Shown here one piece after another: positions 11,421-33,301 of a DNA stretch of 64,000 bases. A model generated the notes under the pieces. That model saw only the letters and a list, made by a program, of their open reading frames with translations, did not search any database and was not told where the DNA came from. The stretch comes from an uncultured Acetatifactor sp. (lineage in GTDB: Bacteria > Bacillota > Clostridia > Lachnospirales > Lachnospiraceae). The stretch spans positions 14,829-78,828 of the forward strand of contig CANQUQ010000009.1 of assembly GCA_947627115.1 (NCBI GenBank). The letters run 5' to 3'. Numbering within the stretch: position 1 is the stretch's first letter; every line of letters starts with the position of its first letter. The position numbers and the translations under genes were made by a program.

Positions 11421-11564
11421 AGATTTCTCCTTTCAAATGCAGAACGGAAATAATTGTAATTATCATAACCCATTTTGTTTATTTGTCAACTTGTGGTTTT
11501 AGAAGGAATCTATTATAATGGTGTCATAGGTGTTGGCGGCAAGGTCAACGAGATGGAGGAGAGC

Positions 11565-13520
11565 ATGACAGATAAGAATCGGCAGAAAAGACCCTATCCG
11601 TTGGGAGCTCATGTGGAGGAGGACGGTATTCGTTTTGCCTTTGTTTCCAAAAAGATGTGCTGCGGCGTTCTGCTGTTCGACAGAAGGACGGGAAAAAAGA
11701 TCGGGACGGTCCCGTTCTCCGACGAGGACCGCGTGGGGAACATATACTGTAAGACGCTGAGCGACCTGGATGCCTCCCGGATCACATACCAGTTCTATGA
11801 GGAGGACAGGATCGTTCCGGACCGTCGTGCCAGGGTCTTTCCGGGAAAGGTCAAATACGGGAAGGAGAGACCGTGGGCGCAGATGCGTGCGGGCTTTCTG
11901 ACCGGGAGCTTTGACTGGGGCCAGGATAAATTTCCCAGGATCCCCTATGACCGGATGCTGGGTTATTGTATGCATGTGAGAGGCTTTACCAGGCATATCT
12001 CGTCCAACGTGAAGAACCGGGGCACCTTTGCGGGAATCGCGGAGAAGATCCCGTATTTAAAGGAGATCGGTGTGACGACGCTGGAGCTGCAGCCGGCCTA
12101 TGAGTTCACCGAGATGGCCGCCGACGAGGAACTGCTTCAGGATCGGCCCGGCGCAGCCGCCGTTGAGGATGTCAGAGGCCTGGGCGGGAAAAAGCTGAAT
12201 TACTGGGGCTATAAAAAGGGCTATTATTATGCGCCGAAGGCTGCTTATGCGGCCTCGGAGGACCCGACGGTGGAATTTAAGGCTCTGGTGAAGGCGCTTC
12301 ACGAGAACGGCATGGAGCTGATCATGCAGCTGTATTTTCCCAGGGACGTAAAAAGAAATGAGATTGCCGAGATAGTGCGCTTTTGGGTCCTGGAGTATCA
12401 TGTGGACGGTTTTCATCTGCTGGGCGAGGACATGCCCGCGGAGCTTCTGGCCGCGGACGAGGCGCTTGCGGATACAAAGCTGTGGTACTATCATTTTGAC
12501 ACGGACCATATATATGAGAGAGATGAACAGCCTCGCTATCCCCATGTGGCGGAGTACAACGATGCATGGTACTATGACATGCGGAGATTCCTGAAGGGGG
12601 ACGAGGGAATGCTGAACAGCGTGCTCTATCACATGCGCCACATTCCTGAAAAGGCCGGCAGTATTCATTACCTGACAAATTATTTCGGCTTCACCCTGGC
12701 GGATCTGGTGGCCTACGACTATAAGCACAACGAGGCGAACGGCGAGGACAACCGGGACGGGAATGACAGCAACTGCAGCTGGAACTGCGGAGAGGAGGGC
12801 CCTTCCCGCAGACAGAAGGTGAAGCAGCTCAGGACGAAACAGATCAAGAATGCGATGTGCCTTCTGCTGTTGTCCCAGTCGACGCCCCTGATCTTCATGG
12901 GCGATGAGTTCGGCAATACTCAGAGGGGAAACAATAATCCGTACTGTCAGGACAATTCCGTCACCTGGCTGGATTGGAACGCCGTGACCAAAAATGCCGA
13001 GCTGTTGGATTTCTGGAAACAGCTGGTACATTTTCGCCGGGAGCATCCGATCCTTCACCCTCGGAGGGAGTTAAAGCTGATGGACTATATGGCGTGCGGT
13101 TACCCCGATCTGTCCTACCACGGACAGAGTGCCTGGAGGCCTCAGACCGAGAGCTATTTCCGGTACATCGGTATTTTGCTCTGCGGCAGATACGCAGAGA
13201 CGGAGAACGGGGAGGACACCTTTTTATATCTCGCAGTGAACATGCATTGGGAAGACCATGAGCTGGCGCTGCCAAGACCGCCGAAAGGAATGGTGTGGAG
13301 GCAAGTGCTCTCCACGGCCCCGGATCAGAGCGAGCCGAAATGTGAACCGGACGACGGGAGCAACGATGCCTTCCGCAGGATCCCGTGCAGGAGCATCAGC
13401 GTGTATGTCAGCGCCCCGGCGGAGGAGAAGAGGACCGCGAAGAGAACAGAGGGAAAGGCGGCGCCCGCCGGGAACGAACGGACGGGGCAGGCGCCAAATG
13501 ATCGGGATGTGAGCAGATAA
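11565..13520 (+). CDS. GlgX/isoamylase-like GH13 protein lacking catalytic residues (probable pseudo-enzyme)
   Basis: GlgX hallmarks present (YPLGA, NYWGY, KHNEANGEDNRDG, SWNCGEEG, MGDEFG, GNNNPYCQDN); catalytic regions read DGFHLL, KLWYY, TNYFGFTL. Confidence 0.85.
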   Translation: MTDKNRQKRPYPLGAHVEEDGIRFAFVSKKMCCGVLLFDRRTGKKIGTVPFSDEDRVGNIYCKTLSDLDASRITYQFYEEDRIVPDRRARVFPGKVKYGKERPWAQMRAGFLTGSFDWGQDKFPRIPYDRMLGYCMHVRGFTRHISSNVKNRGTFAGIAEKIPYLKEIGVTTLELQPAYEFTEMAADEELLQDRPGAAAVEDVRGLGGKKLNYWGYKKGYYYAPKAAYAASEDPTVEFKALVKALHENGMELIMQLYFPRDVKRNEIAEIVRFWVLEYHVDGFHLLGEDMPAELLAADEALADTKLWYYHFDTDHIYERDEQPRYPHVAEYNDAWYYDMRRFLKGDEGMLNSVLYHMRHIPEKAGSIHYLTNYFGFTLADLVAYDYKHNEANGEDNRDGNDSNCSWNCGEEGPSRRQKVKQLRTKQIKNAMCLLLLSQSTPLIFMGDEFGNTQRGNNNPYCQDNSVTWLDWNAVTKNAELLDFWKQLVHFRREHPILHPRRELKLMDYMACGYPDLSYHGQSAWRPQTESYFRYIGILLCGRYAETENGEDTFLYLAVNMHWEDHELALPRPPKGMVWRQVLSTAPDQSEPKCEPDDGSNDAFRRIPCRSISVYVSAPAEEKRTAKRTEGKAAPAGNERTGQAPNDRDVSR

Positions 13521-28688: not shown

Positions 28689-29933
28689 ATGGCACAGATC
28701 AGACCATTTGCGGCATATCGTCCCGTCCCTGACATGGCGGACAGGATAGCGGCGCTGCCCTACGACGTGTACAACAGGCAGGAGGCGGAGCAGGCGGTAA
28801 AGGACAATCCGGACTCCTTCCTTGCAATAGACAGAGCGGAGACCGGCTTCGGCCCTGAGGTGGACACTTACGCGCCGGAGGTCTATCGGCGCGCGGACAG
28901 GCTGCTGCATGAGCGGATCGCGGCCGGACAGTTCCTCAGGGAGGAAAAGCCCTGCTTTTATCTGTATCAGCAGATCTTTCAGGGAAGGAGACAGACAGGG
29001 ATCGCAGCCTGCGCCTCCATAGACGATTATCTGGACAACACGATCAAAAAGCATGAGAATACCAGGGAGGACAAGGAGCTGGACCGCATCAGGCATGTGG
29101 ACGTGTGCAATATGCAGACGGGCCCCATCTTTCTCGCCTACCGCGCCAACAATGCTCTGCGAGAGATAGTGGCGCAGGCCCAGGAGCAGGAGCCGGTGTA
29201 TGATTTTGTGTCGGAGGACGGCGTGGGACATCGCGTATGGGTGATCGGGGACGAGGACGCGATCCGGCGCATACAGGAGGAATTTGCCCGGATCCCCGCG
29301 CTCTATATCGCGGACGGACATCATCGCTGCGCGTCCGCGGTCAAGGTTGGACTGATGCGGAGGGAAGCACATCCGGACTATACGGGACAGGAGGAATTCA
29401 ATTTCTTTCTCTCGGTCCTCTTTCCGGACGAGGAGCTGCACATTATGGATTACAACAGGGTGGTCCGCGACCTGAACGGATATACCGCTGTGGAATTTCT
29501 GGAAAAGATCGGGAGCAATTTCCGGGTGGAGGATCGGGGGACGAGCCCCTGCCGCCCTGAGAAAAAAGGCACCTTCGGCATGTTTCTGGAGGGCCGGTGG
29601 TATCTGCTGACGGCGAAGGACGCCATTCTCTCGGAGGATGCGGTGGAGGGGCTGGATGTCTCCCTGCTGCAGAAATATCTTCTGGAGCCGGTCCTCGGCA
29701 TCGGCGATCCCAGGACCGACAGGCGCATTGACTTTGTGGGCGGGATCAGAGGTCTGGAAGAGCTGGAGCGGAGAGTGCGGACAGATATGAAGGCAGCGTT
29801 CGCAATGTATCCCACCTCCATTGAGGAGCTGTTCCGGGTGGCGGATGCGGGCAGGCTCATGCCTCCCAAGTCCACCTGGTTCGAACCGAAGCTGAGGAGC
29901 GGACTGTTCCTGCATGATATCCGGCAGAGCTGA
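28689..29933 (+). CDS. DUF1015 family protein (ParB/Srx-like motif)
   Basis: IRPF..YRP, LPYDV, KHENTR, YIADGHHR, PPKSTWFEPKLRSGL. Confidence 0.85.
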   Translation: MAQIRPFAAYRPVPDMADRIAALPYDVYNRQEAEQAVKDNPDSFLAIDRAETGFGPEVDTYAPEVYRRADRLLHERIAAGQFLREEKPCFYLYQQIFQGRRQTGIAACASIDDYLDNTIKKHENTREDKELDRIRHVDVCNMQTGPIFLAYRANNALREIVAQAQEQEPVYDFVSEDGVGHRVWVIGDEDAIRRIQEEFARIPALYIADGHHRCASAVKVGLMRREAHPDYTGQEEFNFFLSVLFPDEELHIMDYNRVVRDLNGYTAVEFLEKIGSNFRVEDRGTSPCRPEKKGTFGMFLEGRWYLLTAKDAILSEDAVEGLDVSLLQKYLLEPVLGIGDPRTDRRIDFVGGIRGLEELERRVRTDMKAAFAMYPTSIEELFRVADAGRLMPPKSTWFEPKLRSGLFLHDIRQS

Positions 29934-29979
29934 CGCAAGAAGATGGGATTCCTGCGGCGGCAGGAAGATAGGAGAGAGC

Positions 29980-32409
29980 ATGACAAAGAAATTGTACAAG
30001 CTGATGAACTGGCCCCTGATAGAAGAAATCATATATTCGGAGAGCGACGATCCCCATGCCGTGCTGGGCCCTCACAGGGCGGGCAGCCAGACGCTGGTGC
30101 AGGCGTATTTCCCCGGCGCGAAAAAGGCGGCTTTGGTCTATGACAGGACGGGAGAGACCGTACAGATGGAAAAGGCTGACGACGACGGCTTTTTTGCGGT
30201 GCTCCTGCCGGGCACGGAGGCGCCGGCCTACCACTATCAGGTGCAGAGAGGCAAGAAGACCCTGACCTTCGGGGAGCCTTACCGCTTTGAACCCCGGATC
30301 ACCAAGAGCGACACGGAAAAGTTCAGGAACGGCATCCATTATACGGTCTACGAGAAGCTCGGAGCGCATCCCATGGAGCTGGAGGGCGTAAAGGGCACCT
30401 ATTTTGCCGTCTGGGCGCCGGGCGCCATGCGCGTCAGCGTGGTGGGGGATTTCAACGAGTGGGACGGACGGATGCATCAGATGCGCCGCCTGTGGGACTC
30501 AGGCATCTTTGAAATATTTGTTCCCGGTGCAAGGGCCGGAGAGAACTACAAATTTGAACTGAAGCTGAAAGACGGCCTTACCTACCTGAAGGCCGATCCT
30601 TACGGGAACGCGGCGCAGCTGCGCCCGGAGACGGCGTCCGTCATTGCGGATCTCAGGGGCTTTCACTGGGAGGATGAACGGTTCCTCCGGGACAGAGAAA
30701 AATTTCAGACCGGTGCGGTGCCGATGAGCGTCTACGAGCTGTACCTGGGCTCCTTCACGGCGGCGAGGAAGGGAGAGGCCCGCGCAAATTACCGCGATAT
30801 CGCGGATGCCCTGATCCCCTATGTGAAGGAGATGGGCTATACCCACGTGGAACTGATGCCGGTCATGGAACATCCCCTGGACGAATCCTGGGGATATCAG
30901 GTCATCGGGTATTATGCGCCCACATCCCGCTACGGTTCTCCGAAGGACTTCATGTATTTTGTGAACGAACTGCACAAAGCGGGCATCGGGGTGATCCTGG
31001 ACTGGGTGCCGGCGCATTTTCCCAGGGATGGATACGGACTTTCGGATTTTGACGGGACATGCCTGTACGAGCATCCGGATTCCCGCAGGGGAGGTTACAC
31101 GCCCTGGGGAACGCTGACGTACGATTACGGCAGACCGGAGGTCTCCAACTATCTGATTGCAAACGCCCTGTTCTGGGTGGAGAAGTACCATGCGGACGGG
31201 ATCCGGATGAATGCGGTGGCAAGCATGCTGTACCTGGATTACGGCAGGAGCGACGGACAGTGGACGCCCAACATCTACGGCGGCAGAGAGAATCTGGAAG
31301 CCATTGAGTTGATAAAGCACCTGAATTCCATCATGAAGAAGAGAAACGCCGGCGTGCTGACCGTCGCGGAGGAGAGCACGGCTTTCCCCGGAGTGACAGG
31401 CAATCTGGACGAAGGCGGGCTGGGCTTTGACCTGAAGTGGAACACGGGATTTGTAAATGACTATCTGCGCTATATCCAGTATGATCCCTATTTCCGGAGC
31501 CATCATCACGGTGAGTTGACCTTCAGCATGATATATGCGTACAGCGAAAAATTCATGCTGGCCTTCTCTCATGACGAAGTGGTACACGGGAAAGCGTCCC
31601 TGGCGGGAAAGATGCCCGGTGACAGGGGACAGAAGCTGGCAAATCTCCGCCTGACGTACGCTTACGCGATGGCGCATCCCGGTAAGAAGCTTCTGTTCAT
31701 GGGACAGGATCTTGGAGAGCCTGACGAATGGAATGAAAAACGCCTTGTGGAGTGGGAATTGGCCGAGGCGCCGGAGCATGCGGGAATAAGAGCGCTGGTG
31801 AGGGATCTGAATCACCTTTACCGCACCAGTCCGGAGCTGTACGAGCTGGACGATCGGGCTGAGGGCTTTGAGTGGATCAATAATATTTCCGGCAATGAGA
31901 ATTATCTGGTCTTCCTGCGCCATGGCGAAAAAGAAGAGCAGGTCCTGCTGGTGGCGGCCAATTTCTCCGGTATTTCCAGACAGATCACCGCGGGCGTGCC
32001 CTTTGACGGGAAATATAAGGAGATCTTCAACTCTGACGACGAAAAGTACGGCGGCAGCGGTGAGACGAACGGCCGGGTCAAAAAGGCCCGCCGGACAGAG
32101 TGGGATGACAGGCCGCAGTCCGTCACGGTGAAGCTGGCCCCGCTGTCTGTGAGCATACTGCGCTATATTCCTTATACGGAGGAAGAGCTGGAGCAGAAGC
32201 AAAAGCAGGAGAAGGCCCGCATGGAGAAGGCCGCGGCGGCAAGGAAGAAAGCTCAGGAGAAGGCCGCGGCGGCAAGGAAGAAAGCTCAGGAGGAGGCCGC
32301 GGCGGCAAGGAAGAAAGCCCAGGAGAAGACTGCGGCGGCAAAGAAGAAAGCTCAGGAGAAGACTGCGGCGGCAGGGAAGAGAACTCAGGAGAAGGCCGCA
32401 AAGAAATAG
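29980..32409 (+). CDS. glgB: 1,4-alpha-glucan branching enzyme homolog with nucleophile D->N and Lys/Ala repeat tail
   Basis: DPHAVLGPH, FAVWAP, SWGYQ, DWVPAHFP, DGIRMNAVASM, AEEST, SHDEVVHGK. Confidence 0.92.
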   Translation: MTKKLYKLMNWPLIEEIIYSESDDPHAVLGPHRAGSQTLVQAYFPGAKKAALVYDRTGETVQMEKADDDGFFAVLLPGTEAPAYHYQVQRGKKTLTFGEPYRFEPRITKSDTEKFRNGIHYTVYEKLGAHPMELEGVKGTYFAVWAPGAMRVSVVGDFNEWDGRMHQMRRLWDSGIFEIFVPGARAGENYKFELKLKDGLTYLKADPYGNAAQLRPETASVIADLRGFHWEDERFLRDREKFQTGAVPMSVYELYLGSFTAARKGEARANYRDIADALIPYVKEMGYTHVELMPVMEHPLDESWGYQVIGYYAPTSRYGSPKDFMYFVNELHKAGIGVILDWVPAHFPRDGYGLSDFDGTCLYEHPDSRRGGYTPWGTLTYDYGRPEVSNYLIANALFWVEKYHADGIRMNAVASMLYLDYGRSDGQWTPNIYGGRENLEAIELIKHLNSIMKKRNAGVLTVAEESTAFPGVTGNLDEGGLGFDLKWNTGFVNDYLRYIQYDPYFRSHHHGELTFSMIYAYSEKFMLAFSHDEVVHGKASLAGKMPGDRGQKLANLRLTYAYAMAHPGKKLLFMGQDLGEPDEWNEKRLVEWELAEAPEHAGIRALVRDLNHLYRTSPELYELDDRAEGFEWINNISGNENYLVFLRHGEKEEQVLLVAANFSGISRQITAGVPFDGKYKEIFNSDDEKYGGSGETNGRVKKARRTEWDDRPQSVTVKLAPLSVSILRYIPYTEEELEQKQKQEKARMEKAAAARKKAQEKAAAARKKAQEEAAAARKKAQEKTAAAKKKAQEKTAAAGKRTQEKAAKK
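32224..32406 (+). repeat. 33-bp in-frame tandem repeat, ~5.5 copies (EKAAAARKKAQ)
   Basis: Units at 32224, 32257, 32290, 32323, 32356 and a partial unit at 32389. Confidence 0.95.
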
Positions 32410-32446: not shown

Positions 32447-33301
32447 ATGGGAAAGATGAATACTGACTTAAATGCAATGGAAAGGTTCTTTACCGATCTG
32501 GCTTCGGAGGGTCTGCATCTGGGGATCCGTGTAGTGCTTGCAGTGATCCTCTTCCTGATCGGCAGCCAGCTGATCAAATTCGTGAGGACCGTTATCAGAA
32601 AATCCATGAGACATGCCCAGGCAGAGGTGGGGGCAATACAGTTCGTGGACTCCTTTGTCAAAACTGCATTGTATATTGTGCTTGTGGTCCTGCTGGCGTC
32701 ATTCTGCGGAGTGGATGCCGCGGGCATTGTGGCCGTCGTGGGCTCGGCGGGCGTTGCGGTCGGACTGGCCGTGCAGGGAAGCCTTTCAAATCTGGCCGGA
32801 GGCGTGCTGATCCTGGCGCTGAAGCCCTTTAAGGTGGGAGACTATATCGTTGAGAGCCTGACCGGCAAGGAGGGCACGGTGACGGAGATCCAGATCTTTT
32901 ATACGAAGCTGCTCACCTTTGACAATCAGACGGTCGTCCTGCCCAACGGAAGTCTGGCCAACAACAGTCTTGTGAACGTGACGGCCCAGGATTCCAGGCG
33001 TATGGAGATCCGTGTGCCCGTGTCCTACAGCACGGACCTGAAGAAGGCCAGGGAGGTCCTGACAAAGGTGTTGGAGGATGACCCGGCAGTGATAAAGGAA
33101 AAGGAATATCTGGTGTTTGTGAATCAACTGGGGAACTCCGCTGTGGAGCTGGGAGTCCGGTGCTGGTTCAGCCAGGCGGATTTCTGGCCGGGGAAATGGC
33201 GTGTGACCGAGAGCTGTAAGCTGGCTCTGGACGAGGCCGGGATCTCGATCCCGTACGATCAGCTGGATGTACATTTAATTGAAAAAGATCAAAACGGATA
33301 A
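32447..33301 (+). CDS. mscS: Small-conductance mechanosensitive channel
   Basis: GSAGVAVGLAVQGSLSNLAGG, KPFKVGDYI, GTVTEIQIFYT, PNGSL, GISIPY. Confidence 0.92.
   Translation: MGKMNTDLNAMERFFTDLASEGLHLGIRVVLAVILFLIGSQLIKFVRTVIRKSMRHAQAEVGAIQFVDSFVKTALYIVLVVLLASFCGVDAAGIVAVVGSAGVAVGLAVQGSLSNLAGGVLILALKPFKVGDYIVESLTGKEGTVTEIQIFYTKLLTFDNQTVVLPNGSLANNSLVNVTAQDSRRMEIRVPVSYSTDLKKAREVLTKVLEDDPAVIKEKEYLVFVNQLGNSAVELGVRCWFSQADFWPGKWRVTESCKLALDEAGISIPYDQLDVHLIEKDQNG

Follow-up and report, generated by a model that had tools for sequence, protein, structure and literature searches.

Branching enzymes of glycoside hydrolase family 13 (GH13) act through an aspartate in conserved region II that forms a covalent glucosyl-enzyme intermediate, and their retaining mechanism requires this carboxylate nucleophile. 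The gene considered here is the long glgB paralog of an uncultured gut Acetatifactor sp. (Lachnospiraceae) from a rabbit-gut sample, which lies within a 64,000-nucleotide stretch of the draft assembly GCA_947627115.1 (contig CANQUQ010000009.1, positions 14,829 to 78,828 of the forward strand, hereafter the window). Among described enzymes, CceBE1 of Cyanothece (PDB 5gqw/5gqx) and GlgB of Escherichia coli are alike to its product in the order of the GlgB_N, CBM48, (β/α)8 and C domains and in regions I, III and IV. The window copy differs from both in carrying an asparagine in place of the nucleophile, a Thr-Pro-Trp motif in loop 2, an 80-amino-acid tail rich in Lys, Ala and Glu, and a position outside any glg operon. 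An engineered counterpart of this asparagine exists in the branching enzyme RpBE, where the mutant D305A alters the identical position; the window allele, in contrast, is natural, fixed in its species and accompanied by remodelling of a substrate-binding loop.

The closest functional parallel comes from plants. ISA2, like the long GlgB, is a GH13 glucan paralog without a functional catalytic site that is conserved beside an active paralog (ISA1), and it has been proposed to be conserved for glucan-binding sites that arrange polymers rather than for catalysis (PMC12510319). The two differ in that ISA2 is of debranching origin (GH13_11), ancient and universal in plants, whereas the long GlgB is a branching enzyme (GH13_9) in which the loss is young, confined to the level of species and recurrent. 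ISA2 also partners the active ISA1; a partnership of the long GlgB with its active paralog is conjectural. A literature search for inactive or pseudoenzyme forms of bacterial GlgB found nothing relevant. Our analysis indicates that the long copy in the window is probably a young, selected, catalytically disabled paralog that binds α-glucan. The features on which this proposal turns are the following.

29980-32409, plus strand: long glgB paralog, 809 aa, with GlgB_N, CBM48, GH13 catalytic and alpha-amylase C domains and a Lys/Ala/Glu-rich tail
31000-31020, plus strand: GH13 region I, DWVPAHF, intact (Asp and His present), from translation and motif scoring
31078-31125, plus strand: domain B loop 2, DSRRGGYTPWGTLTYD, with six lineage-specific substitutions in columns at least 96% conserved
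31210-31212, plus strand: AAT, Asn411 (Asn433 in the 831-aa open reading frame), at the GH13 region II nucleophile position, from the sequence and the alignment to Cyanothece GlgB
31366-31380, plus strand: GH13 region III, AEEST, intact (general acid/base Glu present), from translation and motif scoring
31567-31587, plus strand: GH13 region IV, SHDEVVH, intact (His and the transition-state-stabilising Asp present), from translation and motif scoring

The plus-strand open reading frame (ORF) at 29914-32409 translates into a full-length GlgB. A GGAGA ribosome-binding site stands seven bases before the ATG at 29980, and the 809-aa gene calls in public assemblies match this start. The ATG at 29980 is therefore the likely start, so that the residue in the catalytic column is Asn411 and is Asn433 only in the longest ORF; residue numbers below nevertheless follow the 831-aa ORF unless stated. 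Family membership is clear from NCBIfam NF003811 (886 bits, cut-off 741) and TIGR01515 (833.5 bits, cut-off 463.95). The Pfam domains PF22019 (36-123), PF02922 (148-231), PF00128 and PF02806 (654-750) follow one another in the order of GlgB, and Cyanothece GlgB (5gqw) aligns end to end with residues 35-754 (E=5.6e-210). Scored over nine catalytic positions, the signature of the protein is YDHRNEEHD, where the canonical one is YDHRDEEHD.

The segment at 31198-31227 reads GGG ATC CGG ATG AAT GCG GTG GCA AGC ATG, that is, G-I-R-M-N-A-V-A-S-M. In the 5gqw alignment 'dgirmNavasmly' stands opposite 'dgirvDavasmly', which places the Asn opposite the nucleophile Asp of CceBE1; where GlgB enzymes have Arg-x-Asp in region II, this copy has R-M-N. 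An earlier note, made from the letters of the window, had claimed an AAT (Asn) codon at this position, one base from GAT and with AEEST and SHDEVVH intact. The sequence, the translation and the alignment agree with this observation throughout. Three explanations were offered there, namely a sequencing error, a mutation of one strain and a conserved pseudo-enzyme, and the data separate them.

Two studies supplied three DNA runs (X1, X2, X3) and a third an RNA-seq run (X6); their contigs carry AAT with no difference at the codon, and contigs of a fourth study (X7) keep it as well. Relative to the window they show strain-level single-nucleotide polymorphisms (SNPs) at 31158 (X2, X3, X6), 31309 (X2, X3) and 31329 (X3). 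Since these neighbouring SNPs differ between runs, the contigs represent other strains and not one assembly copied several times. Every sequence of the 90%-identity cluster that spans the codon (P0002, P0122, P0123 and P0125, from ENA, Logan and NCBI) reads RMNAVASM, and the ORF is open across 809 aa in all strains. Two raw-read runs (X21, X22) contained 0 reads from this organism, so the support for AAT rests on contigs. An artefact of sequencing or assembly, or a mutation present in the assembled strain alone, would fit the single-base difference from GAT and the nature of the source, a metagenome-assembled draft of 105 contigs. We consider it extremely improbable, since AAT recurs in assemblies made independently from five runs of four studies and representing several strains, together with the differing SNPs of the ENA and NCBI cluster members, and six further fixed substitutions lie in the flanking loop. 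The same recurrence in every sampled strain of the species disposes of a mutation confined to one strain.

Beyond the species the picture changes. The nucleophile column holds Asp in 118 of the 120 nearest homologues listed, the sole other exception being the cluster P0028, and the first 29 long copies fetched from the genus have GAT or GAC without exception (29/29), with GAT in the nearest ones. Asp is encoded by GAT in the sister species P0003, P0004 and P0005 (P0005 matches genome G032), which are at 86-87% identity and form a clade with the window species at 100% support. Because these nearest relatives use GAT, the change is a single G>A transition. The Asn is thus real, derived and fixed in all sampled strains of the species. 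The suggestion of a conserved pseudo-enzyme stands within the species, where AAT is shared by every sampled strain; it fails beyond it, as the nearest species have GAT, the very finding that the note had named as grounds for refutation, and the loss is young and lineage-specific rather than an old conserved trait of the family. Codon reassignment was also considered and rejected: AAT occupies eight columns that are Asn in at least 95% of homologues, and the nucleophile is the single column where it replaces an equally conserved Asp.

The nucleophile is not the only part of the cleft to have changed. Besides D433N, loop 2 carries the substitutions P390S, H395Y, P396T, H397P, I402T and N404D. 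Residues T396-P397-W398 of the long GlgB align (5gqw alignment) with K397-E398-W399 of CceBE1, which have been equated with P268-D269-W270 of RpBE in a 'loop 2' that contacts the donor glucan (PMC11464733). In RpBE, D269 and W270 make the strongest interactions with the donor chain; the relative activity falls to 16% in D269A, to 26.9% in P268A, with no substitution of P268 exceeding this value, and to 5.6% in the nucleophile mutant D305A, in mutants that are properly folded (PMC11464733). At the corresponding site the loop is characterised by a Pro-(Asp/His)-Trp motif, which takes the form P-H-W in at least 97% of long orthologues and P-D-W in the short paralog; the window copy has T-P-W.

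Amino-acid changes were polarised with outgroups and counted within residues 362-520, which span regions I to III and domain B, and outside them. The window branch carries 30 changes, 16 of which fall in this segment, against 1 of 21 on two sister branches (Fisher p=2e-4). Outside the segment there is no acceleration, with 14 changes on the window branch and 11 and 9 on the sisters. The concentration is sharper still at columns at least 95% conserved, where 11 of the 12 changes of the window lineage lie in 362-520 (p=1e-5). Such a distribution would be expected from a release of constraint in the catalytic cleft alone, with normal selection persisting over the remainder of the protein.

These observations suggest the following course. 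A change from GAT to AAT removed the nucleophile Asp from one of two GlgB paralogs and became fixed. Asn cannot serve as a nucleophile, and loop 2, by which the donor chain is led into the cleft, has been remodelled too. The double-displacement mechanism of GH13, taken with the RpBE mutants, makes it most likely that the long GlgB has lost, or nearly lost, its α-1,4 to α-1,6 transfer activity.

The loss is not unique within the genus. In a sample of 61 genomes, nearly all carry two glgB genes, one long (740-980 aa) and one short (about 645 aa), with 47-52% identity between the two. The nine catalytic positions, scored in 48 long copies of this sample, are canonical (YDHRDEEHD) in 44, and four, including the window copy, are not. 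The three others and a further, metagenomic lineage are as follows.

G037 (L078): YDRKTEEHD; domain B deleted, region II with Arg to Lys and Asp to Thr
G046 (L079): YDHRED-HH; Asp to Glu, region III lost, region IV SHH
G014 (L096): YDGCGSGHE; His, Arg, Asp and Glu lost
Second Asn clade, metagenomic (P0028, P0126-P0129): YDQRNEEHD; a fifth loss lineage

The long copies of G014, G037 and G046 hold the syntenic position and open frames and are heavily degenerated. All five loss lineages occupy separate positions in the tree, each on a lengthened branch (0.67 for G014, 1.22 for G037 and 0.34 for G046). The second Asn clade groups with the Asp-bearing P0007. When the nucleophile column was masked, no bootstrap tree united the Asn rows. 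A single origin for both Asn lineages of the genus was rejected by the tree and by the approximately unbiased (AU) test against monophyly (difference in log-likelihood 73, p=0.0002), which implies that the change from Asp to Asn occurred twice in the genus. On this sequence evidence, the canonical catalytic signature was lost from the syntenic long copy on five independent occasions within the genus; the window copy is the youngest and mildest case of this recurrent loss.

The second Asn clade has also lost the region I His (DWVPSQF, His to Gln). Its ratio of nonsynonymous to synonymous substitution rates (dN/dS) is 0.062-0.071 at synonymous divergences (dS) of 0.38-0.79, where Asp-bearing orthologues show 0.03-0.10. 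Three conserved columns, 397, 433 and 511, changed in both Asn lineages of the genus (overlap 3, expected 0.41, p=0.006). Such convergence on identical columns could be taken to mean that the long GlgB is still an enzyme, with residual or altered activity (slow branching, non-covalent hydrolysis or a new specificity through loop 2) and with adaptive changes in the loop. The clustering of changes in one loop rather than their scatter, the intact acid/base Glu, region I, region IV and framing Trp, and the 5.6% relative activity kept by the RpBE nucleophile Ala mutant all speak for such an enzyme. Set against them are the need of the retaining GH13 mechanism for a carboxylate nucleophile and the further losses of the parallel lineages, which extend to the region I His in the second Asn clade and to Arg, Glu and Asp in G014, G037 and G046. 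As these further losses fit lost catalysis rather than a tuned new chemistry, we regard a still-active enzyme as quite unlikely.

To this can be added the selection acting on the window copy itself. Compared with strain L004 over a 726-codon core, it shows 13 synonymous and 7 nonsynonymous differences (dN/dS 0.155), where the neutral expectation is 77% nonsynonymous (binomial p=6e-5 on 20 differences). A three-taxon decomposition of Nei-Gojobori distances gives a dN/dS of about 0.09 for the window branch and of 0.03 and 0.06 for the sisters, values that are rough because the synonymous distances to the sisters approach saturation (dS 1.2-1.4). Within the species, purifying selection following the loss is seen on 20 differences; it is clear in parallel Asn clades (dN/dS 0.04-0.11 at dS 0.4-1.3). 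The long copy is open and constrained outside the cleft.

This bears on whether the gene is a pseudogene in waiting, that is, a copy redundant with the short GlgB that was recently knocked out by D>N, has not yet gathered stops and owes most of its apparent constraint to the time before the knockout. Several facts are in keeping with such a fate: the loss is limited to one species whose sisters have GAT, an intact paralog is present in the genome, most lineages of the genus that lost the signature are lone tips with long branches (G014, G037, G046), and some fairly complete genomes, such as G016, are without a long copy. The excess of synonymous differences arose within the species after fixation of the Asn, however, and the lineage evolves no faster than its active sisters outside residues 362-520. 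Sixteen changes in the cleft segment have accumulated yet no stop or indel is found in 2430 bp, and the independent Asn clade has stayed open at a dN/dS of about 0.07 through dS up to 0.79, with others doing so through dS of about 1. A decaying pseudogene is, in our judgement, unlikely.

Asn-type copies also occur outside the genus. All GTDB species genomes were scanned for DNA encoding D-[GA]-x-R-x-N-A-V-A-[ST]-M, which returned 36 places; about 17 are real GlgB homologues, 11 of these from Lachnospiraceae, and the remaining matches arose by chance in unrelated frames. The isolates Blautia sp. OF03-15BH and Fusicatenibacter faecihominis each carry an Asn-type copy and two canonical short-type GlgBs, and their Asn-type pair has a dN/dS of 0.042. 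A six-species Asn clade with further losses (DWVPSQF, AEDSS and loop Trp to Asn) shows 0.086-0.109, and the other Lachnospiraceae Asn-type clades together range over 0.04-0.11. At least three clades with lost catalytic residues are thus kept by purifying selection. Among 401 genomes (one from each of 400 other genera of the family, and the window genome itself) the pattern was found in only 3, one of them the window genome, so the Asn state is rare and not the norm of the family.

Copies with an Asn nucleophile and otherwise intact motifs also occur beyond the Firmicutes, in metagenome-assembled genomes (MAGs) of Actinomycetes (L048, L055) and of a delta-proteobacterium (L052), in Planctomycetota (L045, L072) and in Vicinamibacterales (L074). 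The two Actinomycetes copies have a dN/dS of 0.28 relative to each other. Several of these non-Firmicutes copies come from long-read MAG projects, in which errors are possible.

The earlier note had called for a search for a second glgB, and one is present. The short GlgB (P0130; contig C14, 37899-39851; 650 aa) has intact RVDAVASM, AEEST and SHDEVVH motifs, and glgA and glgC/glgD are found on contigs away from the long glgB. An active paralog is likewise present, at the sequence level, in G014, G037 and G046 and in the Blautia and Fusicatenibacter isolates. A 1221-aa ORF (C14:34265-37930) lies upstream of the short glgB and shares about 30 bases with the start of that gene. A second GlgA-like match (L099; C8:71922-73598) lies in a 940-aa open frame at 225 bits, below the family cut-off, and may represent a fused or divergent glycogen-synthase-like protein.

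Within the window, a GlgX/isoamylase-like ORF (11475-13520, plus strand) reads HVDGFHLLGED in region II, without the Arg and the nucleophile Asp. It shares genome, pathway and GH13 superfamily with the long GlgB and, like it, is an open frame that has lost catalytic residues; the long GlgB differs in that only its nucleophile and loop 2 are altered. Judged by these residues, the genome appears to carry two disabled GH13 paralogs of the glycogen pathway, the long GlgB and the GlgX/isoamylase-like ORF.

With an intact short copy in the genome, branching would be left to the short GlgB, acting with GlgC/GlgD and GlgA; this task may have passed to the short copy in the lineage of the window species. 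The long copy most likely persists as a non-catalytic α-glucan-binding protein. It retains CBM48, GlgB_N, the acid/base and other cleft motifs and the basic tail, and it would most simply bind glucan through CBM48, the N domain and a still well-formed cleft. That D>N preserves glucan binding, as the earlier note held, is plausible on these motifs. An essential residue has been lost from an otherwise intact full-length homologue, which is what makes a pseudoenzyme. In addition, the long GlgB probably fulfils some role independent of catalysis: it could arrange or protect glycogen chains, or act as a partner of active enzymes as ISA2 does in plants.

The neighbourhood and the tail of the gene add the following features.

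28689-29933, plus strand: DUF1015 gene directly upstream of the long glgB (Pfam PF06245, E=3e-115), separated from it by a 46-bp gap
32223-32399, plus strand: 33-nt tandem repeat, 5.4 copies, encoding the basic tail (AAAARKKAQEK)n
32447-33301, plus strand: gene of an MscS-type mechanosensitive channel directly downstream (NCBIfam NF007662)

A place for the long glgB in a glg operon was rejected, its neighbours being serC, serA, the DUF1015 gene and mscS genes, with glgA and glgC/glgD elsewhere. The gene order serC, serA, DUF1015 gene, long glgB, mscS is kept in relatives, even in other Lachnospiraceae genera, and the DUF1015 gene adjoins the long glgB both in the genus and in such other genera (L004, L035, L037, L043, L044). 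No terminator-like site was found in the 46-bp gap between the two. In the metatranscriptome X6, thin and even contigs lie across the DUF1015 gene, glgB and mscS, one of them spanning the junction of the DUF1015 gene and glgB. The conserved adjacency, the short gap free of a terminator and the junction-spanning contig of the RNA run suggest that DUF1015 and the long GlgB are functionally linked.

The tail itself (32173-32406) is 80 aa long and consists to 88% of Lys, Ala, Glu, Gln and Arg. In the genus, canonical long copies end in tails of 27-213 aa, whereas the short paralog lacks a tail. Between two strains, 16 of the 36 codon differences in the long glgB fall within the tail. AlphaFold2 predicts the tail, with low confidence, as a single long helix; the model was built on a 35-sequence alignment of close relatives and has a mean pLDDT (predicted local distance difference test score) of 58, with the catalytic domain below 50.

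Several considerations weigh against a selected, disabled long copy. Its inactivation is inferred from the GH13 mechanism and from the Ala mutant of another enzyme, itself 5.6% active. The within-species selection test rests on 20 differences and the branch dN/dS is rough, and the low dN/dS of the stem could largely predate the D>N change. A perfect catalytic set in 44 of the 48 genus copies means that catalysis is normally selected, and the losses lie mostly at the tips of the tree, where mildly deleterious dead ends would be expected. The AlphaFold2 model is too poor to show structural support. Finally, coverage as thin and even as that of the three genes would result from DNA carry-over as well, so the RNA contigs of X6 are not counted as evidence of expression.

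A broader version of our proposal extends to the long GlgB of Lachnospiraceae as a whole, which would have a selected non-catalytic function that renders catalysis dispensable, lost as it is in five lineages of the genus and at least three clades elsewhere, cultured Blautia and Fusicatenibacter among them. The protein might order or shield glycogen by means of CBM48, the cleft and the helical basic tail, or pair with the short GlgB or GlgA. We advance this broader version tentatively, as a possibility held at somewhat below even. For the window copy, the sequence evidence is best filed as a young pseudoenzyme derived from a branching enzyme, one instance of a recurrent and previously undescribed trend in Lachnospiraceae.

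Databases annotate the window protein and its Asn-type relatives in Blautia, Fusicatenibacter and many uncultured Lachnospiraceae as active '1,4-alpha-glucan branching protein GlgB', and counts of glgB copies serve to infer the glycogen-storage capacity of gut commensals. A review reports two or three glgB homologues in Blautia and Dorea, in which inactivity was not considered (PMC10395257). Since cultured isolates carry Asn-type copies, the question is directly testable, and the window species, with nothing but the nucleophile and one loop changed, offers a natural 'first step' that is useful to separate binding from catalysis. If the broader proposal is true, no earlier family of branching-enzyme-derived pseudoenzymes has been described in bacteria. 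Such copies and the dead GlgX relative of the same genome would then belong to a layer of glycogen control in gut Firmicutes that works without catalysis, and bacterial branching enzymes would hold a structural or regulatory role beyond branching, in parallel to plant ISA2.

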